A stretch of DNA of 56,627 bases from a virus (IMGVR_UViG_3300029822_000012:1-56627), one strand, 5' to 3'. Positions 13,101 to 34,061 are shown, counted from the first letter of the stretch. Notes: generated by a model from the sequence alone, not told the origin. Made by a program: numbers and translations.

Positions 13101-16100
13101 ACTAAGGCAAGTAGAAGGTCGTGGATGGAGGCAGGGTAACACTTGGCAGAATATCAGGGTAAACTACATGCTGACCAATGATAGCGTTGATATTTTCATG
13201 CTTCAGAGGCTTCAAATAAAACAAGGGCTCTACAACGAAGCAATGAGGCAGGGGGCAGAGACCATAGATGTAAGCGACATCAATACAGAAGAGCTAAAGA
13301 ACGCGCTTATAACCAATCCCGAAACACGTGCAGACCTTGAGATAACAGTCGAGAGGAACAGGCTCGAAGCAGAAAAAGAGCGTATAAATGCCGACCTGGC
13401 ATTTATATTGAGGAAGCACAAAAAGTTCAACGAGTTACGGTCAACGGTTGATCAAAAGAGGGAGAGTGTTAGAAATTACGAGAAAAACGCGGAAAAAGAC
13501 AGCTGGTGGAACGGGTATGTTGAAAGAGAAAAAAGGAACCTGTTAAAATACGAGAATGATCTTCAAGAGGAAAAGTTGAACATAGAGAAAAAGGGTGTTA
13601 ACGTTGATGATATTGATAATCAAATTGAAAAATCAAATGCTCAAATACAATCCCTCGACAATGAGATAGAAGGATTAAAAGATGAATACACCAAGCTGGT
13701 AGATAAGTATAGGAAAGAGAGAGAAGAGCTCTCAAAAGAGAGTGGTAACCTTCTTGAAAGCCACCTACAAGAGAGAGCCAATGAAAACAAAGGAGGATTC
13801 TATGAAAAAAGAGACAACACACTCTTCCGCTCTAATGATTCTCGTGAAGCTTATGCTGAAAGAGAGTGGAATCGAGCAAAGAATGCAGCAAATGAAATAG
13901 CTTCCCGTTTGGGTGTAGAGATTGATATCCTCGAAACCACCGATGGGCTTACCGGAAAGAAAGCGGAAGCCAAGGGATGGTATGATCCTGAGACGGGGAA
14001 GATAGTCATCGTAATGCCAAACCATAGGAGTTCAGGTGATGTTCAAGCCACATTGCTACATGAGACGGTGGGGCATCATGGCTTACGTGAGCTGTTTGGT
14101 GAACACTTTGACACTTTCTTGGATAATGTGTTCAACAATGCTGACGAGGGCATCCAGAGAGCCATACGCAATATAGAAAAAGAGCAGAGGCTTGACAGAA
14201 GAACCGCCACGGAAGAATACCTTTCGTGGTTAGCAGAAGACGGCAGCCTTCTGGAAGGGGATGGAATGAGAAGCTGGTTCGGCAAGGTAAAGCAATTCTT
14301 CCTCGATATGTTGGCCAAGGTAGGGATAAATCTTGATTTCAGGTTATCGGATAATGAATTACGATATATCCTTTGGCGAAGTTACCAGAACTTGGCAAAT
14401 CCGGGAAGGTACAAGACCCCCTCGGATCAGGCAAGGGATTCAGCGATGCAATCAGAGCTTAAAGTGGGGAGTTTTGCGGAAGTAGAACATATCGAGAATG
14501 AGGTAGCAGATCTAAGATTCCGAATGACGCAACCTCCACGGAATGTTTCAGAAGCCGCAGAAGCCGCAAATTCAAGCATGACCGAGCAATTAAGACAGGA
14601 GTACGACAGGAAGTACAGCAAGTTTGCCACACGATTCCGAGAGGCATGGGAAGACATGTATCTTCCGGTTAAACAATTCTTGGATGTATTAAGAGGGAAC
14701 GGTATTGAAGTTGCAGAGTATAACGACTTCTATAAGCAAGCTACAGCACTGTCAGGTAAGAATGATGCACAACTGGATCATTTCAGAAAGGCATTCCAAA
14801 AACCAATTACAGAGCAAATAAGCAACCTTGAAAAGCTCGGTTTCGAGTACCGAGATATAGAGAACTATGTTTTTGCCAAACATGGACTTGAACGTAATGA
14901 CTTCATGGCAAAACAGGAAGCAAGAGATCGCTATGCAAAAGACATTCAGGACCTGCAAAAAGACTACAAGGATGGCAAGATCGGTGAGGAAGAGCTTGAA
15001 ATGGGCATAGATGCTATAAATCTACAGATAGAAGATCGTTATGAGCATCTTTTGGAGACAAAGGACTATTCAGGTATAACAGCACTTGAAGAAGAATTTG
15101 ACAAGACAGCTGAAGAGTACATAACTGAATTTGAACAAAAAGCCGAAGAAGAAAACATAGCCAAGTTATGGGATGCAATCAAAAAAGCAACCGATTACAC
15201 GCTTGAAAGGCAGTACAAGTCCGGAATGATCAAGAAGGAAACCTTGGATGAGCTTAGATCGAGGTATGATAACTATGTTCCATTACGCGGACATGATGAA
15301 ACAACAGCAGAGGATCGTTGGGATTATACACCCGATATGGGTACATATTTCTCCGCTCCACTGTTGAAAGCACACGGTAGAAGATCAAGGGCAGAGAGTC
15401 CATTTGCATACATAGAGCAGATGGCCCACTCGGCTATTACATGGGGAAATAAGAATGATCTTAAACAGACGATGCTGAGACTGGCACGCACTGACACAAA
15501 AGGTTTAATGAGTGCTTCCCAAACATGGTACCGAAACATGGGAACCAAGGAGGATCCGAGATGGGAACAGGTTAGTGCCGAATACAACGAGAATGTAGAT
15601 CAATACCTGCAAAATCAGCGTGACTTTGAAGAGCAAATGCGAGAGCTTCATGCAGAGGGAATGGCATTCCAAAGTGGTGCGAGAAAACTTGATATCGGAG
15701 GAATATTTATCAAGCCAAAACAGGCAGAGCAGCATGAGCTGCGTGTGTACCAGAACGGAACAAGTTACACTGTTTACATTAACGCTAACCCCGCGGTTGC
15801 ACAGGCAATAAACGGATCTAACAGGAAAGATAAATCGAAGAGTTTAGGCGCATTTAGCACTGTTACACGAAACATGGCCGCGAACTTCACTACTCGCAAT
15901 CCACTTTTCGTGATGACTAACTTATCGAGAGACTACATTTTCGCATCATCCATATTAACAGTAAAAGAGTCTCCGGCTTATGCAGTTAAGTTTCAAAGGA
16001 ACATTCCTAACGCAATGGGGTCATTGCAGAGATACGTAAGAGGTAAGCTCGATATGACTAACCCGAACGATGTAATGATGTATGAATACATTATGAATGG

Positions 16101-17535
16101 AGCCAAAACCGGTTTCTCCAGCATCTTCGAGCTTGATAGGGTTGCAAAGAAGCTGAAGCGTGAAGCCGAAAAAGGGAACAAGAAAAAAAGTGCTCTTGAT
16201 TACGGGAGAAATGTTCTTGATGTTGTGGATTCATTAAACGAAATAGCAGAAAACATGAGCAGACTTTCGGTTTACATAACATCAAGGAAGGAGGGTAGAT
16301 CAATTACACAGTCAGTGCATGATGCAAAGAACGTAACAGTCAACTTCAACCAGAAGGGCGCAGGTAGGAGTGCGGCAAAGAACAGGTTTGAAGCATTCAT
16401 ATTTAATGCTTCAAGTTATGTGAGGCCTCTTTACCTATTTAGTAATGCAGCTATACAATCATTGAGCAATTTCTCAAAGGTCGCAGTCAAGAACCCTAAA
16501 GGAATGTCAGCACTTGTAGCCTCTTATGCACTTAGTGGATTTATTGCACCGTTCCTTGCAGGGTTAATAGGTGGTGATGATGGAAAAGAGGACTACATGA
16601 AGCTATCGGACTGGGAGAGACAAAACAACTGGTGTATTTGGCTTCCAAATGGATTTGTAAAAATACCTCTTCCCCATGAGTTGAGGGTTTTCCACAGAAT
16701 GGGTGACAATATCTACCAAGCTGCATTCGAAAACAGAGACATTTTCCAAACACTACTCGATGTTTCCATGGGATTTAGCGACTTGCTACCTGTCAATCCT
16801 TTGGGAGCCACGGATGCGAGCTGGGCAGAACTTGCACCAGATGCTATCAGACCATTCGTTCAACTCGTACCCAATACCAATTTCATGGGAAGCAGGATAT
16901 ATGATAAATGGGCAAGGAAGCACGCACCCGGATACCAAAAGGTTAGAACAAACAAAAAAGGAGAACCTTATGCACCAAAAGCATTAATAGGTATATCGAA
17001 ATGGATAGACAACACTACCGGTGGTGATGGGGTTAAGAAAGGCGTTATCAGCCCTCCTAATCCAGATATAGTGCATCATTTAGCAAGAGGGTACTTCGGT
17101 GGCTTGTATACATTAGCAGAACAAGGGATTAATATTATCGCGCAAGCATACAGCTGGACGCAAACAGGGGATCTTGATCTAAAGATAAGGCAAACACCAC
17201 TTCGCACCTTCTATGCAGATGCAAACGACTTGAATATACAAGGAAGCGGACTAAATAGTAGGTACTGGAAAGTAACAGATGATATTCTTAAAAGCAGAGG
17301 ACTAATCAAAGGCTATTCCGATCAGCTCGTGAATGGCGAAATAACGCATGATGCATTTCAAGAAAAGATAAAGGGCTTGAATGTTCCGCTTGTTAACGAG
17401 ATTAACGACTACATTAAAACAATAAGAAAATACGAGAATGCATTGAAGGAGATGAATTCAGACGAGCAGAAAGAAGCGGAGAGAATCATTTCAGACCTTA
17501 AAAAAACAGTTATAGAGTTGGGAAATGGAATTTAA
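4120..17535 (+). CDS. Giant DarB-like polyvalent protein (ParB-like, inorganic pyrophosphatase-like, N6-adenine methyltransferase, SNF2 helicase, metallopeptidase, LPD38-like domains)
   Basis: 4471 aa; VVLSGNDR; GNYRKGHV..DGDQIDVF; ALEPSVGIGNF and GNPPYG; AHEVGFGKT, DEIH, LSATP, QVEGRGWRQGN; LLHETVGHHGL. Confidence 0.88.
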   Translation: MPIYESNGKRYSIPEDKVNDFLKAREGAKLVDETPFYLSNQQPQGVSKPAVKQPQQPNVTVQEEPQESTIDMSNLFSKHVARGNAFDNVEGGISLRDTAKVGHLGRSNNQGGIPDAMKDAYQNYKSGEQFKSSIQDQLEAYRIDNQGKLQDRYKDLQAREQEYERTKSGFQKLATAGSARMSDRALIQLDEDYSNYKFASDYINEAQQLISNVQDEKGILKGVGDAIFDYDTWILGIENTRKNAYTNTAIQKLERGEELTDSENALLDAMALNLAASAYYGSDLKRQYNWGQIAGESLPFMMEFILNPFAKMGKGVGKAIAKYGIKRFGKKGAGALATRVGGSLASDIVGASAMVGTTGLPRTFGDAASRHSGDAYYDVDEEGKIVFGGTEGAVDPLEAITNAFLSQGIEYFSEMTGERFSEVGRLIGRSPALKGIKATGFGRAMTKFNRSPVVRELRGLEKRGQWSGLIGEWYEERVGTMLNSLFVGDSHLSDLYDLEQQVDTFMGLSLTGGLMGGIRTTGYAADRAQSAKKLRRTDRTASSLFPNWDKMKSQIEGMTLAERKASILDIAISKDIPGPAKAAYTDYVGAKNYQDVLSGIKEESNKEELIDTRQRINQLVNTAVNPQTNSIIIANVPGAKEVRLYGDIVLNEDGTINEIDSGSVFYTAEDGKRHVVSPKFVEILENTPADQAKEETLNIVTEEIANRQANEAVRPYEIGEVVTFSTDGKTSLLGQVSGQNKDGTYHIAVDGMPEPLAIEPRMIIPEDNIRGIENGMQVQYRDQEGNIHTGIVNDAFGLRQQGLIDIDGNMVPTTDIIPIDEMTDIEAENEASPIAEADNMQAEVEETEQNDTTPEQQAEIQAQLQAEQEKQAFMDSLPVFEKGKNQGEIDQSRMTPEQNVQYFEYTYGKEKALQAAEKQVDNLKKRLKSERTKLDNDPFNIKQNQKVEDIQTQLDAYSNYVNQEKQRLTEENIKSTPKSSIAEDRQARSEDIRQEEAGATGQADQSIIEKWSNAEKIEGIEDVITLSNGEKIEGRYVLTTADAPSPSHDIERNFAKTVGFPVNEQGNTVNDRDYEADLTAQTLVQQRANNYDERAVQTPVVVSQDGVVLSGNDRTMAGQIAAINGTDGAYTSYIERYANRWGFTPEQVQSVQNPRIVFVPNNPMPYNTATFAKFNAEEKKTQNSLEAAIKASKSISREVVIPLAETIENFDKLTDFYSSAPAIKKTIDALLQNGVIQPNELPRLMDGNLLSAEGKSFLETIMLGSVLGEQALREVDQMRSVRQTLMRTMPQLFRNSSLKEYSLMGELNNAIHLLYEAKQNGSTITLHLKQGNLFELSAEEVYSETEKLLSLMLEGEKDTTFRNIFEAFNKKAVSIESGQVDLFDGIMEKPDLLKQILEIYGQQETESSEQAESPDGIDSRSEERREEQRPEEQSTDEGTGQQQEVEEPDSYIQKTVNRWVDLYEKGEYEEIFDDVVFNNVDANRPYIKPFEERVGITIPDISTKKKKRDFIKSLREKPIINIVEHANNVVKNEEIRVEADKTDTKPSEAQKKAGNYRKGHVNIQGFDITIENPAGSVRSGVNQDGTEWSNTMQNHYGYFKRTNGKDGDQIDVFVGNKPESNHIFVVDQINTETKEFDESKVMLGFDTLQEAKDAYLSNYEEGWQGLGSITTVDVDTFKEWAKDRKSQRKPFSEYRDVQSKQVPKEYGAENKGVTTEQYEELKQRMRGLLNNLNVGFNPEIFTIGAQMAAYHMEAGARKFADYATRMINDLGENVKPYLKSFYEGVRAMGNEYEGMDSYKYVKDFDVESLGKEVQKKTEEKQTDNKKDDVPLRKGPQQGSLFDNVNTEEDGSRQQTNTRADNRQSESDRGRLPESEQVPEQGVSSEDASRTGESERMLTESGSGQPRTRHEHDVSREYSNEEIHGIVSSVTEIKDGKVEITGEITDDIKTIAGRYKSGGVAKEGRGVLDEYYTSERIVDAVAEILSKYIKPNTNTRALEPSVGIGNFIDALPNKGEIVSFEINETTARIAKILHPNIEVNLRPFETEFIDEKGNKKPMPSKYDIVVGNPPYGQHRGKYKGLGEESRISRYEDYFVKRGLDVLNENGILAMVLPSGWMNRNKLENGYRILDAYRLPTGVFEGTDIGTDIVVLQKDSKHKSKENHNYFDSNPANILGETKERKNRFGRMEEYVDGDIDSAMDALRQNEAKKIASDLHIEPTRDNVNEIDEAVKEATTSDGAKKVVRATRAKKSTATAPESGKIVITPSQLKYEFKRGDEVVPAADQFPNKFSKEESDAFRDTDYSGVFKNPEKHRRYANYYAGKWMHDFYYAEGNIYDRLEQLERDRDNISKEQYDKQRQMLQDVLPDQKTLGEININPNTAFVKNLNLPSSESEKKSLQDRFLEFAGNLPRDAFGSSNYWEVRSYVLNEQVYGQDKARNQLVRERRKRVGKDLFHKFLREELTDTQRKQVEYAFNREYNAVYRPDYAKVPMFSSIHKNFRGKPFELTEVQKAGIGRMTVKGVGVLAHEVGFGKTLSAILSMHEAMDRGYTKKPLIVVPNDSILKQWVETINDILPEATVNVLGNLGVKYNLDNFNVNDGEYTIVTYQGFKKLSFRNNVYDKLAQDFHYISDTDLDKQKSTRESEKEKADIQETVGKMQRQGSYSFEDAGFDYLTFDEIHNANHIVGKVQIDRKDHSDFRSQSQNTSDLGIKTWVAAQYIQQQNDGRNVLLLSATPFTNKPLEYYSILSLVANSTLKRMGFYQVDQFFETFMEADNDLEIAANGKAQQKTNVRRFRNNGLFNQLLGEYIDIKGEQDNPDLVRPERINKEYKIPQNNLTQDALAQAQALLEDGETVLSGLTQSRLIAFSPYASYLSNESPQSHKEFVENSPKIHGTIKLIEQNRKDNAGAGQIVYSELGVDFFPYIRDYLINESKFKASEVAIIAGSTSATERTRIQSEFNKGAIKVILGSPAIKEGMNLQENTTDMYILSLPYNFTQLRQVEGRGWRQGNTWQNIRVNYMLTNDSVDIFMLQRLQIKQGLYNEAMRQGAETIDVSDINTEELKNALITNPETRADLEITVERNRLEAEKERINADLAFILRKHKKFNELRSTVDQKRESVRNYEKNAEKDSWWNGYVEREKRNLLKYENDLQEEKLNIEKKGVNVDDIDNQIEKSNAQIQSLDNEIEGLKDEYTKLVDKYRKEREELSKESGNLLESHLQERANENKGGFYEKRDNTLFRSNDSREAYAEREWNRAKNAANEIASRLGVEIDILETTDGLTGKKAEAKGWYDPETGKIVIVMPNHRSSGDVQATLLHETVGHHGLRELFGEHFDTFLDNVFNNADEGIQRAIRNIEKEQRLDRRTATEEYLSWLAEDGSLLEGDGMRSWFGKVKQFFLDMLAKVGINLDFRLSDNELRYILWRSYQNLANPGRYKTPSDQARDSAMQSELKVGSFAEVEHIENEVADLRFRMTQPPRNVSEAAEAANSSMTEQLRQEYDRKYSKFATRFREAWEDMYLPVKQFLDVLRGNGIEVAEYNDFYKQATALSGKNDAQLDHFRKAFQKPITEQISNLEKLGFEYRDIENYVFAKHGLERNDFMAKQEARDRYAKDIQDLQKDYKDGKIGEEELEMGIDAINLQIEDRYEHLLETKDYSGITALEEEFDKTAEEYITEFEQKAEEENIAKLWDAIKKATDYTLERQYKSGMIKKETLDELRSRYDNYVPLRGHDETTAEDRWDYTPDMGTYFSAPLLKAHGRRSRAESPFAYIEQMAHSAITWGNKNDLKQTMLRLARTDTKGLMSASQTWYRNMGTKEDPRWEQVSAEYNENVDQYLQNQRDFEEQMRELHAEGMAFQSGARKLDIGGIFIKPKQAEQHELRVYQNGTSYTVYINANPAVAQAINGSNRKDKSKSLGAFSTVTRNMAANFTTRNPLFVMTNLSRDYIFASSILTVKESPAYAVKFQRNIPNAMGSLQRYVRGKLDMTNPNDVMMYEYIMNGAKTGFSSIFELDRVAKKLKREAEKGNKKKSALDYGRNVLDVVDSLNEIAENMSRLSVYITSRKEGRSITQSVHDAKNVTVNFNQKGAGRSAAKNRFEAFIFNASSYVRPLYLFSNAAIQSLSNFSKVAVKNPKGMSALVASYALSGFIAPFLAGLIGGDDGKEDYMKLSDWERQNNWCIWLPNGFVKIPLPHELRVFHRMGDNIYQAAFENRDIFQTLLDVSMGFSDLLPVNPLGATDASWAELAPDAIRPFVQLVPNTNFMGSRIYDKWARKHAPGYQKVRTNKKGEPYAPKALIGISKWIDNTTGGDGVKKGVISPPNPDIVHHLARGYFGGLYTLAEQGINIIAQAYSWTQTGDLDLKIRQTPLRTFYADANDLNIQGSGLNSRYWKVTDDILKSRGLIKGYSDQLVNGEITHDAFQEKIKGLNVPLVNEINDYIKTIRKYENALKEMNSDEQKEAERIISDLKKTVIELGNGI

Positions 17536-17579: not shown

Positions 17580-19577
17580 ATGGCAAAACGCAAGGCAAAC
17601 ATAAATTTAGCGAAGAAGCTGTTTCCAAAGGAAGCGGCTATAGATACCGTAAGGGATGCTAAGAAATGGGGCAACCAAAGGATTGATGTCGTTAAAGATG
17701 CATTCGCTGCATGGCACGCTCTTGAACCTCTTAGAGAGCAAGAAAAGCGGAATGAAAGGTACGTTTTTGGTGATCAGTGGGGAGATAAGATGAAAAAAGG
17801 TGGCAAGACAATGACCGAGCGAGCCAACATCATTAATCAGGGTAATGCTCCACTTCAAAACAACCGTATCCGGAAGATTACACGAACAGTGGTAGGGCAA
17901 TTCCAAAACAACCAGACAGAGCCTGTATGTATCGCGCGTGAGCGTGATGAACAGGAGAAGGGAGAGATGATGTCTAATGCCATCCAGTATGTTTACCAGA
18001 CAAACAAGTTGTGGAACCTTGACGGCCTTGCATTATACAATATGCTGATATCAGGTATTCCTGTAAATAGAAGCGAGTGGGGAAGGCGTGAAGATCGGTG
18101 GGATGTTTGGAGCGACCTTGTAAACCTCGAGAGATTTTTTGTTGACAACAACATGAAAGATCCAAGAGGATTTGACTGCAACCTCGTGGGGATGCTGCAC
18201 GATATGAGTTTAAATGATGTTCTTGCCAAGTTTGCATCGTCAACAGACGACAGGGATAAGATATTAGGATTCTACGGAGGATTGGGGATCCAAAGAGGAT
18301 TTGATGAATTTACAAGTCGTTTCACGAAAGATAGGTCAGACCTTAATTTCTTCATTCCGGAAAACAACTCGTGTCGTGTAATTGAAGTGTGGCGAAAAGA
18401 AAGCAAGGAAAGGATCGAGTATTGGGATACATACACGGGAGACTATCATAAGGCCGAGCTGTCTTACGTTGATACTATTCGCAGGGAAAACGAGCAAAGA
18501 AGAATAGATCAAGCTGCAAATGGAGTCGCACCGGAGGATATGAGGCTAATAAAATACAGGTGGTTCGTGGATAACTACTGGTATTTCTATTTCCTTACTC
18601 CTCACGGAGAGGTCTTAAAAGAAGGAGAGACGCCGTTCTGGCACAAAACGCATCCATTCACGTTCAAGATGTACCCGTTCTATAACGGCAGGGTGTACCC
18701 GTTTGTTGGTGATTTCATTGATCAGCAGCGGTACATCAACCGCTATATGATGCTTTACGACTTTATAGTTCGTAATTCTGCAAAAGGTGTGCTCGTGGCT
18801 CCACGTGAATTGCTTGACGAATACACGCAAGAAATGATTCGTGACGAGTGGACGCGCGTGGACGGTATTATCTTGTACAATGCGTCGGCGTTGCAAAAAT
18901 TACCAAACGCTAAGATCGAGCAGATTAAGAACGCGAGTGTACCGGTTGGAATAACCGAAATGATTGCAATGCAGACACAAATGATGGAAGAAGTATCAGG
19001 TGTATCCGGTGCACTTATGGGGCAAGAAGCAAAGTCCGGAACGCCATCATCACTATACCTACAACAGAGCCAAAACTCATCTACATCGCTTACCGAGATC
19101 TTTGAGTCATTCAGGGAGTTCAGGGAGTCGAGAGATATGAAAAACATGAAGCTCATCCAACAATATTATACCACTGAAAGGCATATTAATATCAGTGGAG
19201 CGGATTCTAACTCAAAGTCCATAACCTATACCCCAGAGCTTGTAAGAGATACAGAGTTTGACCTAACGATTACTGAAAGTACATCAACGGCATCATACAG
19301 GCAGATAATAAATGACATGCTACTGCAATTCTGGCAAGCAGGCGCGATTAACTTGAAGCAGATGCTTGAGAATGGTGCATTCCCATTCGCAGATAAACTT
19401 CTGCAATCCATAGAGACGGAAAATCAGCAAATGGAGGAAGCCATGACAGAACAAGGGCAGTTAAATGGACAACATTTGCCACAGATTGATCCGGAAGTAG
19501 CAAATCAAGTATATGCAAACGCCAATCCTCAAGCTATGGCAATGTTGAATCAAGGAATTAATAGACAATCAGCATGA
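17580..19577 (+). CDS. Portal protein (P22-like)
   Basis: 665 aa; YVFGDQW, NRIRK..VVG, FIDQQRYIN, EEVSGVSGALMG..SG motifs; Q-rich tail. Confidence 0.85.
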   Translation: MAKRKANINLAKKLFPKEAAIDTVRDAKKWGNQRIDVVKDAFAAWHALEPLREQEKRNERYVFGDQWGDKMKKGGKTMTERANIINQGNAPLQNNRIRKITRTVVGQFQNNQTEPVCIARERDEQEKGEMMSNAIQYVYQTNKLWNLDGLALYNMLISGIPVNRSEWGRREDRWDVWSDLVNLERFFVDNNMKDPRGFDCNLVGMLHDMSLNDVLAKFASSTDDRDKILGFYGGLGIQRGFDEFTSRFTKDRSDLNFFIPENNSCRVIEVWRKESKERIEYWDTYTGDYHKAELSYVDTIRRENEQRRIDQAANGVAPEDMRLIKYRWFVDNYWYFYFLTPHGEVLKEGETPFWHKTHPFTFKMYPFYNGRVYPFVGDFIDQQRYINRYMMLYDFIVRNSAKGVLVAPRELLDEYTQEMIRDEWTRVDGIILYNASALQKLPNAKIEQIKNASVPVGITEMIAMQTQMMEEVSGVSGALMGQEAKSGTPSSLYLQQSQNSSTSLTEIFESFREFRESRDMKNMKLIQQYYTTERHINISGADSNSKSITYTPELVRDTEFDLTITESTSTASYRQIINDMLLQFWQAGAINLKQMLENGAFPFADKLLQSIETENQQMEEAMTEQGQLNGQHLPQIDPEVANQVYANANPQAMAMLNQGINRQSA

Positions 19578-20092
19578 GTAAATTAGAACCAATATTAGTG
19601 CCGTACATGTTTTCCCACGATCATATAATGACCGCAGTCAAACAAGAGTCATCATTGTATGCAGAAAGGAAGCGATCAGAAACAGGTGATGTATTGTTCG
19701 ATGAGCTTGTTTTCGACGAAGAGTATTTAACTAAATTCAGGGAGTTGTTTTTTGATGCACAGGCGAATGTTCTTGATAGGTATAGCCCTTACTTGAACTA
19801 TCTGCCTGATCCTCCTGTAGAAATATTCGAGGAAGCGGACTCGGAGAAAAATATCGACTTCACCTTTAGCTTGCTTATGCCATGTGACTACAATCATCAT
19901 TACAACAAAATGGTGAGCGTTAAGACACGAGAATACATTGAGGCATACATAATGTACCGATGGCTTGAAACAAAGGTACCGCAAGAAGCAGCTATCTATA
20001 AAGATAGGGCAGATAGCGTGTTGATTGATGCACGTGCTTACCTTGAAAAGAGAATTGTCAGGAGACGAATGATCGCTGGAAATATGTTCTGA
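19574..20092 (+). CDS. Putative head-tail adaptor / hypothetical virion protein
   Basis: 172 aa, ATGA-coupled to portal. Confidence 0.5.
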   Translation: MSKLEPILVPYMFSHDHIMTAVKQESSLYAERKRSETGDVLFDELVFDEEYLTKFRELFFDAQANVLDRYSPYLNYLPDPPVEIFEEADSEKNIDFTFSLLMPCDYNHHYNKMVSVKTREYIEAYIMYRWLETKVPQEAAIYKDRADSVLIDARAYLEKRIVRRRMIAGNMF

Positions 20093-20567
20093 TAACCCAA
20101 AATAAGACACCAAGAGCGAATGAGATAACATGTACGAAGAAGTTGCTATTCTTCGAAAAAAGCGAAAATATCAACATTAACGCCAGTGAAGCGCAAAACA
20201 TTATCTTTTGTTCTTTCCTGGCGTTATTTCTTATCACAATAACAAGCAACATCCCAAACATTGCATAGATCATCCCGGAGCATCCAACAGTAGGTAGATC
20301 AGGAATAAAAAACAATGATGACACCAATGACGCCATGTAAATAACAGGAAGCAGGACATACCATTTAACACGCCTCTCCAAAGATCCAAAGCTATTTATA
20401 AACACGATTGAGTTTATGATCAGGTGAACCCACCCTGCGTGCTGAAAAGCAAACGTCAGATGGGTCCACCAAGGAGATGTTGCAGAAAAACCTAATGAAG
20501 TATCAGACAGGAGAAATACTGCAAAAAGTATTAATACAAACAGATATTTAACTATCACCTTTATCAT
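20058..20567 (-). CDS. Rhomboid family intramembrane serine protease
   Basis: About 6 hydrophobic segments; FQHAGWVHLIIN (HxxxxHxxxN), TVGCSG (GxSG catalytic Ser), NFFVH..G (catalytic His). Confidence 0.88.
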   Translation of the reverse strand: MIKVIVKYLFVLILFAVFLLSDTSLGFSATSPWWTHLTFAFQHAGWVHLIINSIVFINSFGSLERRVKWYVLLPVIYMASLVSSLFFIPDLPTVGCSGMIYAMFGMLLVIVIRNNARKEQKIMFCASLALMLIFSLFSKNSNFFVHVISFALGVLFWVIRTYFQRSFVS

Positions 20568-20823
20568 TGCACTTATTTTTGTACTCCTTGTATGCTTCGA
20601 GCATACTCATTGAACCGGTTTCTTGTTGAGCTTCTACCTCTATTTTATATAAAAACATTTGTCTTTCCAGTTCTCTCTCATATTGAATCTTTTGTTTTTT
20701 CAGCTCATTTTTATGAGCTTCTACTAAACTATCTATTTTACTTTGATAATATCTTTGAAGACTCTCCCTTTCAATGCCTTTCTTATTGAATACACTTTTA
20801 AACCAGCTTAATATTTGCTTCAT
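20548..20823 (-). CDS. Hypothetical coiled-coil protein
   Basis: 91 aa, amphipathic N-terminus, overlaps rhomboid start. Confidence 0.65.
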   Translation of the reverse strand: MKQILSWFKSVFNKKGIERESLQRYYQSKIDSLVEAHKNELKKQKIQYERELERQMFLYKIEVEAQQETGSMSMLEAYKEYKNKCNDKGDS

Positions 20824-20835
20824 AATTTAATAATT

Positions 20836-21234
20836 TTAATATGTTATGCTTTTGTTCATTAACTTGTAGTATAGGATTGTAGCGTAATCTTCGCTCAGAT
20901 AAAAACGCGGGGCGCCTTGCTTGAATATTTCTTTCGCATGCCATGATATTGATTTCCCGTTATTTTCGGATAGTGAAGTTTTATACCTGTTATAGATCTC
21001 ATTGTGTTTTTCTGCTATATGCGGTATTGATGATGGCACGTACCGGTCAGTGTTCATTTGCAGTATGAGCCATTTTATATACGCGACGGAAGTAAAGAAT
21101 GAAGAGCATTCGGTCGCCTCTGCCCTAACAGCTATATCTCTCGTGCTAATATATTCCTTCGCTTCACTTCTTATCTTTTCACAGATGTGAAAGAACTCTT
21201 CGTTTTTCTCTTTTTTGAGGAACAGCTTCGACAT
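20836..21234 (-). CDS. Hypothetical protein, possible DNA-binding regulator
   Basis: 132 aa with two similar halves (CSSFF.., APRFYLS..); first gene of antisense operon. Confidence 0.6.
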   Translation of the reverse strand: MSKLFLKKEKNEEFFHICEKIRSEAKEYISTRDIAVRAEATECSSFFTSVAYIKWLILQMNTDRYVPSSIPHIAEKHNEIYNRYKTSLSENNGKSISWHAKEIFKQGAPRFYLSEDYATILYYKLMNKSITY

Positions 21235-21305
21235 GATTGAAAAAATAATTGATTGCTTACCATCAAAGTAATAGAGTGTTGCTTAAACTTAAAATTAAAA
21301 CCTGC

Positions 21306-21313
21306 CAAAGATA
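21306..21313 (-). promoter_or_regulatory. Bacteroidota housekeeping -7 promoter box for rhomboid operon
   Basis: Minus strand TATCTTTG matches TAnnTTTG, about 70 nt before the 21234 start. Confidence 0.5.
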
Positions 21314-21332
21314 CTTACAGCAACCAATATAA

Positions 21333-21376
21333 TTAATCCTATCAACCGATTTAGCCCTTATTAATTGCTTTTTTTG
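21333..21376 (+). promoter_or_regulatory. Putative phage late promoter (scaffold/capsid operon)
   Basis: TTAA-N2-CTATCAACCGATT-N22-TTG. Confidence 0.65.
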
Positions 21377-21415
21377 TGTAGATATAAATTAATCTATCAT
21401 AACAAGTTATGCAAT

Positions 21416-22243
21416 ATGGATAATGAAGAGAAAAAATCGGTCGAGGAAGTTGCCCAAGACGCGCAAGCTCCACAAGATACAGCACTGCCACCTCAAGAGG
21501 AAGCTCCCATAAGGGGAAGAGCTGCAGCTATGGAGAGATACCGGGCTGCTAATCCCGATATCGAAACGGATCCGGAAGATGATGACCTTTATGACTATGC
21601 CATATCGCAGGCAGATGACTACAAAGGTAGGTATGACCAGCAAAACGAGATTAATAGCGCACTCTCAGAGAGAATCTCCGAAGACCCACGATTGGGAGCA
21701 CTTATAGCCGGTATCATGGAAACGGATGAGGAAGGTAATAGAAAGAATCCCGCGTACGTGATGGCAAAGCTGTATGGCAAAGATTTCCTTGAAGATGAAG
21801 ACTCGATGAAGGCTCTTAACGAAGGTTACGCGGAGTACCTTAATGGCGCCAATCAAACCAAGGAAGCAGGCGAAAAAGCATCTCAGAACTTTATTCAGTC
21901 CATGGATGAAGTGGATAAATACGCACAGGCTAATGAATTGGGAGAAGAGCAGGTAGAGGGCTTGCGCCAGGCATTAGTGCAAGCTGCGGATGATATGCTT
22001 AACGGTATTTTTTCATCAGCATTCATCGAGACGGTCGCGAAGGGCATAGCTTACGATGCAGACGTACAGGAAGCAGCCGACACTGGATTCGTAGAAGGTA
22101 AAAACACGAAGATTGAAGCAAAGATGAAAGAAACGCCTGATATCCCGAGCATGGGTGGCACAAGCAATGTGCAGCGGGATGTCACACCTCCCAAGCCAGA
22201 GAAAAAAGGAAGCTTCTTCGACGAGATGGAGACAGTTAGTTAA
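21416..22243 (+). CDS. Putative capsid scaffolding protein
   Basis: Highly acidic helical protein directly upstream of capsid gene; start set at MDNEEKK. Confidence 0.7.
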   Translation: MDNEEKKSVEEVAQDAQAPQDTALPPQEEAPIRGRAAAMERYRAANPDIETDPEDDDLYDYAISQADDYKGRYDQQNEINSALSERISEDPRLGALIAGIMETDEEGNRKNPAYVMAKLYGKDFLEDEDSMKALNEGYAEYLNGANQTKEAGEKASQNFIQSMDEVDKYAQANELGEEQVEGLRQALVQAADDMLNGIFSSAFIETVAKGIAYDADVQEAADTGFVEGKNTKIEAKMKETPDIPSMGGTSNVQRDVTPPKPEKKGSFFDEMETVS

Positions 22244-22277
22244 GGAACACAATAAACAACCAAATTAAAACAGGATT

Positions 22278-23660
22278 ATGAAAAAGTATTTACAGAAAAT
22301 GGAAGGTTCAGGAATATTGATGTTCCTGATAATTGCTTTGCTTGCCATCTTTGGTATTGCAGATGCAGGGGTAATGACAGCTGATGTTGTCAAGCCAACT
22401 GATGGAGGCGCGATAGATATTAGTCCGGACAGTGATATCTCTCGTACGCAAACCGATGAAGAGTCTGTTCATCTAATCTTAGACCAGATCGACAAAGAGG
22501 TTACCAAAATTCGACCTTACGATGTTGTGCTTGACACCATTTCACGAAATGTGAAAGACGTCAAGACAAGCTCCGGACAAGTAGTAAGGCATTATGCGAT
22601 TGATGTGATTGACGTAATAACCAAAGTCAAAACAGCACATACTTATCAAGCAGGAACAGCCCAAATAGCTCTTGACACGCAAGACAATTCAATAATTGCA
22701 AGCGAGCAAACTCTACTTTTTAGAGGTGTTCCTGGTTATCTGCCTGATGGCACTACGCAGGATCCCAAGCATGATTTACTTCTTTATGTGGTAGGTCGAA
22801 ATGATTCAGACCAGCCAATAGTTAGGGCATTTAACGGACGGGGAGCCAATAATAATGACATACCTACTATTGAAGCTGATACTGAAATAGTAGTTATGGG
22901 GCGTGCAGCCTCTGAAAAGCAAATTGCAACTGATGCTTATTCAGGCGTACCGACTGACTTCGAGCAGTTTTTGCAGAAATTCATTGCTCAAGTAGAGATG
23001 ACAGATATCTTCCAAAAAGCCGACAAGGAGGTTAAGTGGACTTTCAGTGACGGAGAAGAGGAAGCAATCTTTGACATGAAGCGTAAAACGAATCTTTCAT
23101 TCTGGCTGTCAAGTAAACACAGAAAGAAATTCAAAAACGCTCACTCGTCTAAAGAGGAAGATGTATTTACTACCGAGGGTATTTGGCATCAGGCAGGAAA
23201 AGACTACTCGTTTGAAGGTTCAGTTACACCCACGAAGATGACCGCGTTAATGAAGATGGCATTTACCGGGAACAATAGTGGAAAAAGGAAACTATTGATT
23301 TGCGGATCAGACGCACTTGAGGATTTTGAGAACCTGTATGTTAATTCAACAAATGGATATACAGCCAATATCAAAGTAGGTGAGCGTAAAGCCGCTTATG
23401 GTATAGAGTTCACCGAGTATATCTCCAAATTTGGAACGCTGATGGTAACGCATGATCAGTCCTTGGATGACCTGGGCATGTCGGCTAAAGCATTCATACT
23501 TGACCCGGACTTCTTAAGGAAGTGGACAATGGGATGGAGAGTTACCAACTTCGATTTACGTAAATCAGCTCAATCTGACTCGGATGCACGTGCCCTGATG
23601 GAGATCTGCGGTCTCGTTCTCAAGAACCCTAAAGCACACGTGAGAGTATCTATTGATTAA
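22278..23660 (+). CDS. Major capsid protein with hydrophobic N-terminal extension
   Basis: 460 aa, follows scaffold; EEAIFDMKR..FWL, TTEGIW and C-terminal GLVLKNPKAH resemble HK97-fold coat proteins; residues 12-30 are TM/signal-like. Confidence 0.78.
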   Translation: MKKYLQKMEGSGILMFLIIALLAIFGIADAGVMTADVVKPTDGGAIDISPDSDISRTQTDEESVHLILDQIDKEVTKIRPYDVVLDTISRNVKDVKTSSGQVVRHYAIDVIDVITKVKTAHTYQAGTAQIALDTQDNSIIASEQTLLFRGVPGYLPDGTTQDPKHDLLLYVVGRNDSDQPIVRAFNGRGANNNDIPTIEADTEIVVMGRAASEKQIATDAYSGVPTDFEQFLQKFIAQVEMTDIFQKADKEVKWTFSDGEEEAIFDMKRKTNLSFWLSSKHRKKFKNAHSSKEEDVFTTEGIWHQAGKDYSFEGSVTPTKMTALMKMAFTGNNSGKRKLLICGSDALEDFENLYVNSTNGYTANIKVGERKAAYGIEFTEYISKFGTLMVTHDQSLDDLGMSAKAFILDPDFLRKWTMGWRVTNFDLRKSAQSDSDARALMEICGLVLKNPKAHVRVSID

Positions 23661-23676
23661 ATAAGGAGGTCTTATT

Positions 23677-24231
23677 ATGGCAAGAAAGATATATAAATCA
23701 ACTACAGGCGTGGAATATATGTTCCACGTCCCTGTAGGCAATAAAGAAGTGACGATCTGGACTCGTGAAAGTGGGAACACGTTCAGCACATCGGACAAGG
23801 AAGTGCAGCAAGCTATAGAGAAGCATAGACTGTTCGTGAACCGGAGTATCGTGTTAGTTGGCACTAATACTGAACCCGAAGATACGACGGGAACGGAAGA
23901 TTCAGGTACCCCTGGGGATAAAACGCCAGAAGTCATAAAGACAACTGAACCTCCGGTGGTTCCTAAAGACGAAGATCCAGTTGACGAAAGTAAAGGCAAG
24001 GGTAAGGAGATCACGGATACCACAGAGGCTGCAAAAACGGAAGATGCCGATGAGCAAACCAACCAGACTAACCAAGCGCAGAATGAATATCCGGAAGTAA
24101 AGTACTTGGGCGACGCGATAGAAGTATTGAGATCAGAACCATATAGCGTGCCGGAATCGGAGTTGTTGTTAAAAAAACAAGTGGTTGCAAAGGCAAAAGA
24201 ATTAGGAGTGAAATTCCCTAACTACCGGTAG
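23677..24231 (+). CDS. Hypothetical protein
   Basis: 184 aa with acidic low-complexity linker, follows capsid. Confidence 0.7.
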   Translation: MARKIYKSTTGVEYMFHVPVGNKEVTIWTRESGNTFSTSDKEVQQAIEKHRLFVNRSIVLVGTNTEPEDTTGTEDSGTPGDKTPEVIKTTEPPVVPKDEDPVDESKGKGKEITDTTEAAKTEDADEQTNQTNQAQNEYPEVKYLGDAIEVLRSEPYSVPESELLLKKQVVAKAKELGVKFPNYR

Positions 24232-28306: not shown

Positions 28307-29596
28307 ATGAATCAATTAGGAAATGCCGACTTAGTGCAATCCATGACACGCAAAGATCACGTGCTGGTTTCTATTGGAGGCAGGGTAAAGAGGATTATGC
28401 TTGACAACCTCGCGAATGCAATAAATATTGCAGGCTCTGAGATGTTGAGACAGACAGCTTGGGGGGTGCCTGTAAAGCAATCAACCCAGTCAAATACAGA
28501 TTGGGGCAGAATAGGCAATCTAACAGCTTGGCAAGAGTATAAACGAAGGAGCGGTCGATTTCTGGTAACAGCAGACGGCAGGGCCGCAAAACTCAACCCT
28601 TCAAGTTCTACTATTTACGCGGACGGAACGCCACTGGACGAGACAAAAGGCAATATTATGGTTATCGCTCCACGTCTCTATTTCAGAGTGGAAGAAGACT
28701 CCGTACTGGGATTAACATTGTGGATGTCGGAGCTTCCTATCGGTGGGTATTACATCGGGAACACGGGGTACAATGTTATGGGCTCATATTTAGGAACGAT
28801 GGACGGCTCAAAGCTTGTTTCACGCAGAGGCAGTCCTCCAAAGGGAGCAATGGCTATTGATGCATTCTGGAATGCCGCACAAGTAAATGGCTCATCGTGG
28901 GGATTAGTTGATTATGATCTTCGCAAACTCATGATCATGATAGCACTTTCTGAGTACGGGAACACCAATATTCAAGAAATGCTTGGTTATGGAATGGGAG
29001 GATCCGGTGGATCCACATGGGATGAAGCAATATTAAAACCCACAGGTGAAACTGCACACTTGGGAGACCACTTCGGTACAGCACTATCAGGATTAGAGAT
29101 TGGTACAGATACATGCCATGTAAGCTTGATGGGTATCGAGGATCCATATAGCTGGCTCTGGGAAAACGTCCAAGGTATCTACTTTGGATCATCGGATAAT
29201 GTAACACAGACAGGAGCGGAAGTGTTTTTGTATTCCGGAAACAGGATGCCATCGGCAGCAGAACTGGCAGATAAACCACAGGGCGATTACAGGGTACTTG
29301 AGAGGATCCCTTCAGCATCAAGTTCATACATAAAAGAGATGATTATAGGACCTCAATTTGATATAATACCTACTGTTATAACCGGAGGAGGATCTACCTC
29401 ATATTGGGCAGACGGTTATTGGTCAGCACCTACAGGTCAGCTTGCCCGGTGGGGCGGGTCTGCGGCTGGCGGGTCGGTCTACGGCTTGTCGGCTCTGTCT
29501 GCGGGTTTCGCTTGGTCGTATTCGAATGCGTCCTTCGGCTCTCGCCTTGCGTATTATGGCGATTTAAGGTTTGTTAACGGCCGTGAGATCAATTGA
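28307..29596 (+). CDS. DGR target protein, probable receptor-binding protein with C-type lectin (Mtd/FGE-like) C-terminus
   Basis: GIEDPYSWLWE and C-terminal WGGSA..G..YG..SFGSRL; contains the VR. Confidence 0.9.
   Translation: MNQLGNADLVQSMTRKDHVLVSIGGRVKRIMLDNLANAINIAGSEMLRQTAWGVPVKQSTQSNTDWGRIGNLTAWQEYKRRSGRFLVTADGRAAKLNPSSSTIYADGTPLDETKGNIMVIAPRLYFRVEEDSVLGLTLWMSELPIGGYYIGNTGYNVMGSYLGTMDGSKLVSRRGSPPKGAMAIDAFWNAAQVNGSSWGLVDYDLRKLMIMIALSEYGNTNIQEMLGYGMGGSGGSTWDEAILKPTGETAHLGDHFGTALSGLEIGTDTCHVSLMGIEDPYSWLWENVQGIYFGSSDNVTQTGAEVFLYSGNRMPSAAELADKPQGDYRVLERIPSASSSYIKEMIIGPQFDIIPTVITGGGSTSYWADGYWSAPTGQLARWGGSAAGGSVYGLSALSAGFAWSYSNASFGSRLAYYGDLRFVNGREIN
29439..29549 (+). repeat. DGR variable repeat (VR)
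   Basis: 111-bp ungapped match to 29661-29771; 20 mismatches, all opposite TR adenines. Confidence 0.97.
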
Positions 29597-29614
29597 TCTT
29601 TGAAATAATAAAAC

Positions 29615-29642
29615 CCTCCACCCGATTATTAGAGGGTGGAGG
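29615..29642 (+). other. GC-rich hairpin between VR and TR (candidate DGR homing/cruciform element)
   Basis: CCTCCACCC-N10-GGGTGGAGG perfect 9-bp stem. Confidence 0.6.
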
Positions 29643-29660
29643 TTGGAGGAAGGGATTGAG

Positions 29661-29771
29661 AGCTTGCCCGGTGGGGCGGGAATGCGAATAACGGGTCGAT
29701 CAACGGCTTGTCGGCTCTGAATGCGAATAACGCTTGGTCGAATTCGAATGCGAACAACGGCTCTCGCCATG
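29661..29771 (+). repeat. DGR template repeat (TR)
   Basis: Intergenic copy of VR with 11 AAY codons in the VR reading frame. Confidence 0.97.
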
Positions 29772-29968
29772 ACAATATTAATCGTATTAATTTACGAAAT
29801 CCCTGATCCATGACCCTACTGGAAAGCGGTAGCGTAGTGGCATGGCCACGAAGTCAAAACATATAAGCGGAAAGGTCTCGTTTCTTGCGAAGAGACAAGC
29901 AGTGTTAGTAGGTTAATTCTCGAAAGCTCTGGGCAAATAAAAATGCAAGCCTGAAGAAGGCAAACGTT
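29772..29968 (+). ncRNA. Spacer portion of DGR RNA
   Basis: Non-coding TR-RT interval with stems (CCATG..CATGG, GTCTC..GAGAC) and a GTTAGTAGG..CGAAAGC motif. Confidence 0.5.
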
Positions 29969-30601
29969 ATGGTAAAGAGGAAAGGATACATATTAGAGAA
30001 GATTGCAGACATGGATAATCTTAGACAAGCAGACAGGGATGCACAAGCCGGAAAGGTTCATAAGAACAGGCAAATAAGGCGTCATAACATGCGTGCGGAA
30101 GAGAATCTATCGAAGCTTAGGCAAATGATCTTGAGTTTAGACTTTCCAAAACCTAAGTACACGAAGATGACTGTTGTAACCGATGCAGGCAAAGAAAGGG
30201 AAATAGAAAAGCAAAACTACTTCCCCTGGCGGATCCTGCATCATGCAATATTCAGGGTAATAGGTGATGATATCCACAAGAGCCTCATATACGATACATG
30301 CGCGTGCATAAAGGGCAAAGGCTTACATTTCGGCGTACACCGAATGAAGATGTTTTTGCGGAGATATCCACAGTATAAAGTATTTGTTAAGACTGACATC
30401 CGTAAATTCTACCAAAGTGTGCCACACGACATTGTAGTAAAGGCATTGAGGCGCAAGTTCAAAGATGAAAGGTTTATAAGATTGATCGAGATCACATTAT
30501 TGTCTTACGACAGCGGTCTGGACATAATCCAAAAATTGAAGAAAGATGAAGAGAAAAAGAGGGGTTCCTATTGGAGCGTACCCCAGTCAGCCACTGGGTA
30601 A
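29969..30601 (+). CDS. DGR reverse transcriptase, N-terminal piece
   Basis: MVKRKG.., GKEREI, RILHHAI, CACIKGKGLH, KTDIRKFYQSVPH, FKDERF. Confidence 0.85.
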   Translation: MVKRKGYILEKIADMDNLRQADRDAQAGKVHKNRQIRRHNMRAEENLSKLRQMILSLDFPKPKYTKMTVVTDAGKEREIEKQNYFPWRILHHAIFRVIGDDIHKSLIYDTCACIKGKGLHFGVHRMKMFLRRYPQYKVFVKTDIRKFYQSVPHDIVVKALRRKFKDERFIRLIEITLLSYDSGLDIIQKLKKDEEKKRGSYWSVPQSATG

Positions 30602-30893
30602 TTTCGTGTTGAGCGTGGTAGACCACCATGTAAAGGAAGTATTAAGAGTAAAATGTTACGAAAGGTATTGCGATGACAGCGTGATGCTGGCTAAAACTAA
30701 ACCAGAAGCAAAGTTCCTCCTTAAGGAATACAACCGGGTATGCACCGAGTTGGGATTAGTTGTAAAAGCGGACAGTTTTATCGCGCCAATTGAACATAAA
30801 AAAGATGGCAAGAATAAGAGAAAAAGAAAGCGTATGCGGTCGAAGAATAGACTTTCTGGGGTACCAGTTCACAAACGAAAAAACATTGCTTAG
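30546..30893 (+). CDS. DGR reverse transcriptase, catalytic middle piece
   Basis: GVPIGAYPSQ (DGR-type SQ motif) and RYCDD; own ATG in +1 frame. Confidence 0.85.
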   Translation: MKRKRGVPIGAYPSQPLGNFVLSVVDHHVKEVLRVKCYERYCDDSVMLAKTKPEAKFLLKEYNRVCTELGLVVKADSFIAPIEHKKDGKNKRKRKRMRSKNRLSGVPVHKRKNIA

Positions 30894-31383
30894 AAAGGCT
30901 ACAAAGAAACGGTTCGCAAAGAAAATAAAAAAGGTAAAAAGTAGAAAGCGAAGAAAAGAAATACTCGCTTCATACTGGGGAATGTGCAAGCATGGAGATT
31001 GCAATAATTTATGGAGCGTAATAACAGATGATTATATGGGATTTTCAAAAAAAGGAATAAGGCAGAGTAATAGGACAAAGGAAGGTAAGAAGTTCTATGA
31101 TGTTTCAACAACCCGTCTTATAGATATACTGAATGTTCCGGTGACGATAATTGACTTTGAAAGCGGTATAAAGACAAAACAGGGAGAAGACAGGTATTGT
31201 GTATTGTTCGAGTTGGAAGGCAAGAAGCAGAAGTTTATTACCAACTGCTTTAACATAAAAGATATACTCGACCAGAGCAGGGAAGCAGAGGAAAAGGGGA
31301 GAAAGATATTTCCTGTTGACAATGTAATAATAAAACGTAGACCACTAAGTGAAGGCAAGAGTACATATTACTTTGAAGAATAA
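30805..31383 (+). CDS. DGR reverse transcriptase C-terminal piece fused to an extra ~115-aa domain
   Basis: IDFLGY, LLRK, ASYWGMCKHGD, then in-frame domain from MGFSKKG (ATG 31036); ATG 30805 in +1 frame. Confidence 0.82.
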   Translation: MARIREKESVCGRRIDFLGYQFTNEKTLLRKATKKRFAKKIKKVKSRKRRKEILASYWGMCKHGDCNNLWSVITDDYMGFSKKGIRQSNRTKEGKKFYDVSTTRLIDILNVPVTIIDFESGIKTKQGEDRYCVLFELEGKKQKFITNCFNIKDILDQSREAEEKGRKIFPVDNVIIKRRPLSEGKSTYYFEE

Positions 31384-33394: not shown

Positions 33395-33571
33395 ATGATG
33401 AAACTATACATACGGTTCGGGAGCCTCGCAAGGTTCGAACGACTATACAAAAGCAGCGAATTTTTGCAAGCGGCTCTAACGAAAGAAACTGGGGTCAGGT
33501 GGATCTTCGACAGCGAGGACAAAGACGATATAGTGAAATTGCTGAAAGGCGTAAATTATGAAATGGCATGA
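33395..33571 (+). CDS. Small hypothetical protein (not in ORF track)
   Basis: 58 aa MMKLYIRFG..YEMA; stop overlaps holin start (ATGA). Confidence 0.55.
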   Translation: MMKLYIRFGSLARFERLYKSSEFLQAALTKETGVRWIFDSEDKDDIVKLLKGVNYEMA

Positions 33572-34059
33572 AATCGGTATTGTTGAGTTTGGCAAGGATA
33601 GCGGATAAACTGGAGATGGCCCTGCATAGCGTGTGGGGATGGATTTTGGTCGCGATAACGTCAGCGGCCACATTCCTACAGCCCGAGGCGTGGTCGTTCT
33701 ACGTCGTGGCCGGGGCGGTAGCTGCTGATCTTTTCTGGGGCATCCTCGCAGCGATGAAGCTAAAGAAATTCATACTTTCAAAAGCACTCCGGGAGACCGT
33801 CAAGAAAGTGGGGATATACGCCTACGTGATGATCGGGGTATTCGCTATCGAGAAAATCACTCACACGGAAGGGAGTTTCATAGCCCTGCGGACAATAGCC
33901 ATCTTTGCCGCGGTATGCGAATTGTGGAGCATGAGCGGATCTATGCTTATAGTTAAGCCCAACATGCCATTTCTAAAATTATTCCGCGGGCAACTCAAAG
34001 GAGAGATCGCGGCAAAAGTAAGCAAGAATGTAAACATAGATGATATTTTGGAAGAATAG
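33568..34059 (+). CDS. Holin
   Basis: 163 aa, 3-4 TM segments, directly upstream of endolysin. Confidence 0.8.
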   Translation: MKSVLLSLARIADKLEMALHSVWGWILVAITSAATFLQPEAWSFYVVAGAVAADLFWGILAAMKLKKFILSKALRETVKKVGIYAYVMIGVFAIEKITHTEGSFIALRTIAIFAAVCELWSMSGSMLIVKPNMPFLKLFRGQLKGEIAAKVSKNVNIDDILEE

Positions 34060-34061
34060 AT

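Follow-up and report, generated by a model that had tools for sequence, protein, structure and literature searches.

Co-inheritance of a small rhomboid protease and a leader-bearing major capsid protein in tailed phages, with a possible role in head maturation

Head genes of the phage

The virus record IMGVR_UViG_3300029822_000012 (positions 1-56627), hereafter the window, has a length of 56,627 bases and a completeness rating of 98%. Its head genes include a gene for a rhomboid protease of 169 amino acids (aa; 20058-20567, minus strand) and, on the plus strand, the gene for a 460 aa major capsid protein precursor (22278-23660), the first 35 residues of which (22278-22382) form a hydrophobic leader defined by sequence and by comparison with 89 distinct relatives. 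Among the relatives of this phage the leader and the rhomboid were shown to be lost, gained or inherited together, with both under purifying selection, and a functional link between them is judged likely.

The rhomboid gene lies between the gene of a P22-type portal protein (17580-19577, plus strand; PF16510, E-value 6.8e-54; phrog_156, E-value 5.8e-70), which is followed on the plus strand by a gene of 172 aa, and a scaffold-like gene assigned by position (21365-22243, plus strand; phrog_22323, E-value 9e-22), the likely start of which is, from reading of the sequence, the ATG at 21416. The scaffold-like gene is located directly 5′ of the capsid gene and its homologues are syntenic in all close relatives; it is divergent from the minus-strand rhomboid cassette, so that scaffold and capsid are encoded on the strand opposite to the rhomboid. 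On the minus strand between rhomboid and scaffold-like gene are a 91 aa coiled-coil-like open reading frame (ORF) without a family match (20548-20823) and the gene of a 132 aa protein, p132 (20836-21234; phrog_27246). No conventional prohead protease was recognised, in line with the first-pass annotation, among the 21 window proteins scanned against Pfam and/or PHROGs, some small ORFs being outside the scan.

The phage rhomboid

The 169 aa protein matched the Pfam rhomboid family PF01694 (MEROPS S54) with 54.1 bits against a cut-off of 22.6 (E-value 2.6e-14, residues 33-159). It comprises the six-helix core only, with the catalytic Ser97 in the sequence G95-C-S97-G at the start of transmembrane helix (TM) 4, the catalytic His146 on the last helix (TM6), and H43, H48 and N52 forming the TM2 motif HxxxxHxxxN. 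These residues, i.e. H43, H48, N52, G95, S97 and H146, were the sole invariant columns in an alignment of 32 phage homologues sharing 18-41% identity with the window rhomboid. The profile of this alignment retrieved 162 clusters (50% identity) with E-values ≤1e-30 among 1.84 billion representative sequences; in the best 150 representatives (median length 167 aa) together with the window protein, H43, H48, N52, G95 and S97 were invariant in 151/151 and H146 in 150/151. A word-based homologue search found 11 proteins only, and a tblastn search of the phage collection with the rhomboid as query returned none at E ≤0.01, which is a failure of sensitivity and not absence, since two of those phages have annotated rhomboids. 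Such phage genes are already labelled as rhomboids in the databases.

The AlphaFold2 model of the rhomboid reached a predicted local distance difference test (pLDDT) value of 95.4 and a predicted template-modelling (pTM) score of 0.91. About 30 GlpG entries were matched by Foldseek with template-modelling scores of 0.62-0.71, the best being Haemophilus influenzae GlpG (2NR9, 0.71), and superposition on H. influenzae and Escherichia coli GlpG likewise gave 0.71; the window rhomboid aligns to the H. influenzae enzyme at the TM2 HxxxxHxxxN, at the serine of GxSG and at the histidine of TM6. With GlpG it thus has the catalytic residues and the fold of the six-helix core in common, whereas it is without the cytoplasmic N-terminal domain and its L1 loop region is very short. 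The best NCBIfam match was rhombosortase, TIGR03902, with 44 bits, below the cut-off of 84, and the GlpG equivalog TIGR04239 gave 15.8 bits against a cut-off of 250; by the NCBI models the phage rhomboid is therefore neither GlpG proper nor a rhombosortase. Because the catalytic and structural residues are invariant and the fold matches that of GlpG, it looks like a working enzyme and is predicted to be active. Family match, alignments and gene order agree with the first description of the locus as a 169 aa rhomboid with intact GxSG and His motifs between portal and scaffold.

The capsid protein and its leader

The 460 aa protein is an HK97-fold major capsid protein of the SU10/DUF5309 type. 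It matched SU10_MCP (PF17236) with 99.2 bits against a cut-off of 24.1 (E-value 4e-28), and a match to phrog_26635 (E-value 3.4e-47) spans residues 11-458. Its AlphaFold2 model (pLDDT 76.8) places a helix at residues 1-27, a disordered and acidic stretch at 28-66, and a folded body from about residue 67, and the Foldseek matches of the model were the capsids of Vibrio phage VP1 (best, E-value 6e-24), phicrAss001, SU10 and HK97.

In the leader, a Lys-rich tip (residues 1-8) precedes a 15-residue hydrophobic core (13-27), after which come a hinge of small residues, A-D-A-G (28-31), and the sequence G-V-M-T-A (31-35), followed by D-V-V. This architecture was kept in 89 distinct relatives despite drift of the sequence. 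For the comparison 92 distinct leaders were aligned, three being dropped where the extraction window ended before the motif, and positions were anchored on A35 as P1. The signal-like or transmembrane-like N-terminal helix that had been proposed for the capsid protein was thus recovered across the family, with its basic tip and hydrophobic core. From its conservation as protein and the A-rich context that precedes the annotated capsid start, the leader is concluded to be translated. Translation from Met33 instead, entered as a caveat at the first reading, fails across the family, since residue 33 is Val in the three closest relatives, where the whole leader is retained. Strain variants in public runs, read against the window sequence, were I13 to M, I19 to V, and a silent change at A35. 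One RNA-library contig (run X17) spans 22027-23700 including the leader and was counted as no evidence, since DNA is a possible source and it has no transcript ends.

With respect to a Sec-type signal peptide, an n-region net charge of at least +1 was observed in 89/89 leaders, a 15-residue core in the window, and small residues at P8 and P6 in most leaders. That coat subunits are membrane-tethered, as first suggested, is uncertain, since the 15-residue core and the N-in secretory charge pattern point away from a stable anchor, and the leader looks more like a signal peptide. Among the window proteins, only the capsid protein combines a hydrophobic segment with a downstream motif of this kind. 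The leader was also considered as that of a lipoprotein, a reading that was rejected as a Cys follows the small-residue hinge in few sequences only.

Co-occurrence in viral contigs and prokaryote genomes

When the search started from the capsid protein, a rhomboid homologue was present in 8/8 IMG/VR relatives, in each at the same place beside the head genes. The same position is occupied in Bacteroides phage BF1-TP2, where the rhomboid is annotated in the record, and in Bacteroides phage BS-TP4, where it overlaps a gene called tail spike in the record, the structure note of which matches terminase. When the search started from the rhomboid, 35 viral loci were obtained, and 32 of these have a capsid gene on the opposite strand at a distance of 1.3-3.6 kb; the contigs of the remaining three (L045, L050 and L052) end before that distance. 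A hydrophobic N-terminus was present in 29/29 distinct capsids of this set.

As a side observation on these two isolates, the genes named tail spike protein in BF1-TP2 (L001, 4056-6083) and BS-TP4 (L053, 4853-6949) both carry structure notes matching terminase and occupy the position of the large terminase, and the label is probably a mis-annotation. The gene order in both phages is a hypothetical gene at the p132 position, then the rhomboid, then the terminase-like gene.

From the scan of prokaryote genome contigs the best 80 of 156 loci of relatives were kept, which by record title are mostly from Bacteroidales or related Bacteroidota, with a few other or unclassified bacteria. The loci were divided according to the capsid N-terminus into class A (strongly hydrophobic leader), class B (weaker, Ala-rich leader) and class C (no leader); one locus (L084) is cut inside the capsid gene and was not scored. 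Class A comprised 59 loci, with a rhomboid inside the locus in 49 (48 ORFs and one contig-edge fragment). In eight of the ten others the available sequence extends less than 2.3 kb upstream, and for L073 a phage-type rhomboid was found on another contig (157.7 bits). The 11 class B loci, from Prevotellaceae, had no adjacent rhomboid (0/11), and a short phage-type rhomboid was present in each of the genomes (11/11, 74-96 bits); the only case in which it could be located was on the contig of the capsid itself, roughly 10-25 kb off (G014). Three Prevotellaceae prophages (L087, L093 and L110) have bacterial-looking genes, not scaffold and portal, in front of the capsid gene, where the prophage may have been opened at a different point or the head module rearranged.

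The nine class C loci all lack a phage-type rhomboid of their own (0/9). In eight genomes there are host-type rhomboids only (frames of 303-377 aa, ≤45 bits) or none, and in the ninth (G007) the phage-type rhomboid shares a contig with another prophage (L115), which has its own leader-bearing capsid. No leader remnant was found upstream of the class C capsid starts in any frame. The absence in one of these genomes (G017, locus L109) is weak, since p132 is missing there too. The joint occurrence of rhomboid and capsid extension, set as a test by the first-pass annotation, was therefore borne out as far as genomic data reach: the extension is conserved, a leader is found wherever there is a phage-type rhomboid, and four leaderless lineages are without it.

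Independence of the association

The association was placed on a tree of the capsid body, with the leader columns removed, which contained 105 distinct rows after L084, a locus duplicating the window, and identical bodies had been dropped or collapsed. Both traits could be scored for 97 distinct capsids, with leader and rhomboid both present in 87, neither in 9, the leader only in 1, and the rhomboid only in none. The leaderless capsids form four lineages, and the minimum number of changes on the tree was four for the leader and five for the rhomboid. Three independent contrasts were obtained on supported branches and four in all, every one of them concordant. One leaderless capsid (L102) is nested in class B at a distance of 0.14 substitutions per site. 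Comparison of the loci revealed an empty site, the class B order being X1-rhomboid-p132-Y and the class C order X1-p132-Y, with identities of 51% for X1, 66% for p132 and 59% for Y; the orientation of p132 is inverted between the two.

The candidate processing site

The candidate processing motif of the window, G31-V-M-T-A35 / D36-V37, is located at 22368-22388 (plus strand) and was defined by position counts across the 89 leaders. P1 was Ala in 88 and Ser in one, and P5 was Gly in 63. At P4, Val (54), Ala (23) and Met (5) were the most frequent, with V, M, L or I in 63, and P3 was Met in 41 and Leu in 18, P2 Met in 46 and Thr in 20. On the other side of the bond, P1′ was mostly Ala (30), Asp (29), Glu (17) or Asn (9), and P2′ mostly Ala (54), Val (16) or Gly (10), with A, V or I in 71. 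Small residues were also frequent further upstream, P6 being A, S, G, T or C in 84/89 and P8 A, V, S, T, C or G in 79/89. The counts at P3 and P2 (residues 33-34 in the window) amount to a strong enrichment of Met, which makes up 3.1% of the capsid body, and may reflect either a protease subsite preference or an occasional internal start.

According to the available text of PMC2941825, the rhomboid AarA requires a small P1, a large hydrophobic P4 and a hydrophobic P2′ of any size. With A35 as P1 the window has Val at both P4 and P2′, and the family motif fits that rule, as far as that text gives it, well at P1 and partially at P4. The site IADA/GV, put forward at first as the one cut by the rhomboid, proved not to be the best-conserved candidate, since the nearly invariant Ala lies five residues further on, in G-V-M-x-A. 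The accompanying caveat, that the same sequence also fits the AxA rule of signal peptidase, was justified, as the signal-peptidase-type site A28-D-A30 / G31 is conserved five residues upstream of A35 and coincides with the small P8 and P6. In the leaderless relatives the capsid protein starts some four residues ahead of the conserved block that follows, approximately where the leader motif ends; therefore the mature end after processing should fall near A35.

A complex prediction of the rhomboid with capsid residues 1-70 scored 0.02 against a mark of 0.32, which gives no verdict, and it was not used for or against binding.

Predicted membrane topology

The loops corresponding to the cytoplasmic ones of GlpG had more Lys and Arg in 32/32 rhomboids (mean 8.5 versus 1.2), and the N-terminal flank of the leader core was more positive than the C-terminal flank in 89/89 leaders (mean +2.7 versus -2.2). 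The leaders are accordingly all predicted to be N-in (89/89), and from the loop charges together with the flank charges the rhomboid active site and the leader motif are predicted to meet at the periplasmic face of the membrane.

Proposed mechanism and alternatives

As a single mechanism for the association, direct removal of the capsid leader by the rhomboid is the best candidate, and we put the chances of this predicted cleavage at about even. The signal-peptide-like leader would take the nascent or newly made capsid precursor to the inner membrane in the N-in orientation, where the active site of the mini-rhomboid would open on the periplasmic face. The rhomboid would cut the flexible stretch past the hydrophobic core, most likely after A35 (G-V-M-T-A / D-V), and the released, assembly-competent subunit would have an N-terminus like that of the naturally leaderless relatives. 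As a guess at how the capsid body could remain cytoplasmic, translocation might be aborted, so that no more than the leader and the linker of disordered, acidic sequence (36-66) enters the translocon. We infer the rhomboid as the cutting enzyme, the exact bond, and the stay of the capsid body in the cytoplasm or its return there. More broadly, and tentatively, at somewhat less than even chances, head assembly in this Bacteroidales tailed-phage clade may involve an obligatory membrane step, in which a Sec-type leader targets the capsid protein and the rhomboid frees an N-in substrate for assembly in the cytoplasm.

Several observations weigh against cleavage by the rhomboid. The predicted N-in leaders are opposite to the N-out substrates screened for AarA in the available text of PMC2941825, and the orientation would nominally place the capsid body of 425 aa in the periplasm, whereas capsids must assemble in the cytoplasm. 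Ala at P4 (23/89) and Asp at P1′ (29/89) are both disfavoured by the AarA/TatA matrix as given in that text (PMC2941825), and the site of signal peptidase I type upstream could, from its sequence, be the real cut. The sign test yields p = 0.25, the lowest value reachable with three supported contrasts. One class A locus (L058, genome G001) has a leader and no phage-type rhomboid in its metagenome-assembled genome (MAG; best 34.8 bits), which is probably incomplete because the near-universal neighbour p132 is also missing, and absences in MAGs are never proof. As to the orientation, the type II protein Star is described in the accessible part of PMC2941825 as possibly cleaved if its motif loops back into the active site, and the small-residue hinge of the capsid leader could, by analogy, allow such a loop-back.

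The alternative that survives best, although unlikely, is that host signal peptidase I cuts A28-D-A30 / G31 and that the rhomboid has a secondary, leader-dependent job, similar to that of a signal-peptide peptidase or quality-control protease, in clearing hundreds of freed leaders, or jammed or uncleaved precursors, from the membrane. The leader has the three-part build of Sec signals, with a small P6 in 84/89 and a small P8 in 79/89, and the joint loss of leader and rhomboid is equally well accounted for; bacterial rhomboids have moreover been reported in the quality control of orphan membrane proteins (PMC7232013, available text). Set against this, G-V-M-x-A is better conserved than the AxA site (Ala in 88/89), and such conservation is hard to explain as a mere mature start because the leaderless relatives do without those residues. 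Nor are rhomboids known to serve as signal-peptide peptidases.

It is improbable that a different membrane protein, of the phage or of the host, is the one cut by the rhomboid, for example to time lysis, exclude superinfection or remodel the envelope, and that the pairing of rhomboid and leader merely reflects shared ancestry and linkage within the head module. The number of independent contrasts, three to four only, leaves room for this, as does the location of the rhomboid gene on the minus strand, away from the plus-strand scaffold and capsid genes, and the phage encodes further membrane proteins, i.e. a holin (33568-34059) and a 198 aa protein with two hydrophobic segments (34863-35459). 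However, the leaderless lineages are without exactly the rhomboid, yet keep p132 and the flanking genes, and one such lineage is just 0.14 substitutions per site from leader-bearing ones. Class B phages keep a rhomboid away from the capsid gene (about 10-25 kb in G014), so that physical linkage is no explanation of their shared distribution; the motif, moreover, occurs on no other window protein.

Very improbable is a start of the shell subunits at an internal Met at P3/P2 (Met33), in which case the rhomboid would act on a long, leader-bearing isoform that is minor or regulatory: although ATG occurs at P4-P2 in 74/89 leaders, against 3.1% Met in the capsid body, and the product would equal the leaderless relatives in the length of its N-terminus, there is no ATG, GTG or TTG at P4-P2 in 11/89, including the close relative L003, the close relatives L002 and L004 have only GTG there, the Val codons of P4 show no excess of GTG (18/54 versus 855/2619 in the body), the annotated start has its A-rich context and a leader conserved as protein, and a protease subsite preference accounts equally for the Met enrichment.

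Comparison with known systems

The closest described logic to that of the leader and the rhomboid is found in the pairing of rhombosortase with GlyGly-CTERM and in AarA/TatA of Providencia stuartii. Rhombosortases are, according to the available text of PMC3237569, a rhomboid subfamily co-distributed with GlyGly-CTERM, the genes being adjacent when there is a single target, and the likeness to the phage system is that of a dedicated rhomboid co-distributed with one recognition sequence. The phage system differs in having an N-terminal leader and not the C-terminal motif, helix and basic tail of secreted proteins; its enzyme stays under the rhombosortase cut-off (44 versus 84 bits), and the taxa and the biology, a phage head, are different.

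In AarA/TatA a rhomboid removes a short N-terminal extension of one specific membrane-inserted protein and thereby activates it, and the capsid leader largely fits the recognition rule around A35 (PMC2941825, in its available part). TatA, however, is N-out and is cut N-terminal to its helix, which is kept, whereas the phage leader is predicted to be N-in with the motif C-terminal to the helix, so that cleavage would discard all of the helix; here, too, a viral shell protein takes the place of TatA, and the enzyme is encoded by the phage. Precedent for an N-in (type II) substrate is provided by Drosophila Rhomboid-1/Star in the accessible text of PMC2941825, for which the hinge between helix and motif is the corresponding feature of the capsid leader; Star differs as a regulator of the eukaryotic secretory pathway.

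The heads of tailed phages are thought to assemble from soluble subunits, and proteolysis, where present, is performed by soluble proteases inside the procapsid. Prohead proteases such as HK97 gp4 and T4 gp21 are soluble, are packaged in the procapsid, and cut there. They resemble the proposed system in trimming the major capsid protein at its N-terminus, which commits the subunit or shell to maturation. In contrast, the phage rhomboid is integral to the membrane and could act only there.

No description of a phage rhomboid acting on a capsid protein was found in the literature, subscription journals and supplements lying outside the search. If the broader reading of an obligatory membrane step is true, the phage enzyme would be the first head-maturation enzyme that is an intramembrane protease, and the capsid leaders would be the first natural class of substrates to be defined for any viral rhomboid. 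A capsid protein with a membrane leader, inherited together with an intramembrane protease, would mean a type of assembly checkpoint new to phage heads, and the rhomboid field would gain a one-enzyme, one-substrate pair, the substrate predicted to be N-in, with hundreds of natural variants of both. With its 162 clusters the clade is large, and it includes isolated Bacteroides phages, which makes direct testing possible.

Neighbouring genes and other features of the phage

In relatives p132 is located directly upstream of the rhomboid gene, usually overlapping it. It was present in 49 of the 59 class A loci and beside the rhomboid in 6/6 class B loci, and its matches in the ESM Atlas were clusters of hypothetical proteins only. 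Its candidacy as a third component of the leader system was rejected because it is retained in seven of the nine leaderless-class genomes without a phage-type rhomboid. Homologues of the 91 aa ORF were not found in the 79 genome loci (0/79), and this ORF is, from the sequence comparison, apparently specific to this phage.

A family scan of the window identified a tyrosine integrase (200-1405), and the phage is therefore probably temperate. Sequence of the window stretch occurs in metagenomes from fermentation, compost, wastewater and digesters, with shares of 0.25 to 1.0 in the four runs examined.

Upstream of the portal gene, a polyvalent protein of 4471 aa (4120-17535) comprises inorganic pyrophosphatase, LPD14, LPD38, Eco57I-type methylase, SNF2/ResIII helicase and ParB-like domains, and its counterpart in BS-TP4 has about 5390 aa. 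Further downstream, a lysis cassette (33568-35459) with a holin (PF05105), an endolysin-like protein (phrog_181) and the 198 aa protein, the two hydrophobic segments of which are N- and C-terminal, lies directly upstream of a terminase-like gene (35456-37561).

The window also contains a diversity-generating retroelement (28307-31383). Its repeat pair of 111 nt comprises one copy at 29439-29549, in the 3′ end of a tail protein gene (28307-29596), and a second at 29661-29771, and in the repeat core the copies differ only where the second has A. The match to reverse transcriptase (29969-30601) is weak (RVT_1, 23.6 bits, below the cut-off), and the reverse transcriptase appears split from a second ORF at 30790-31383.

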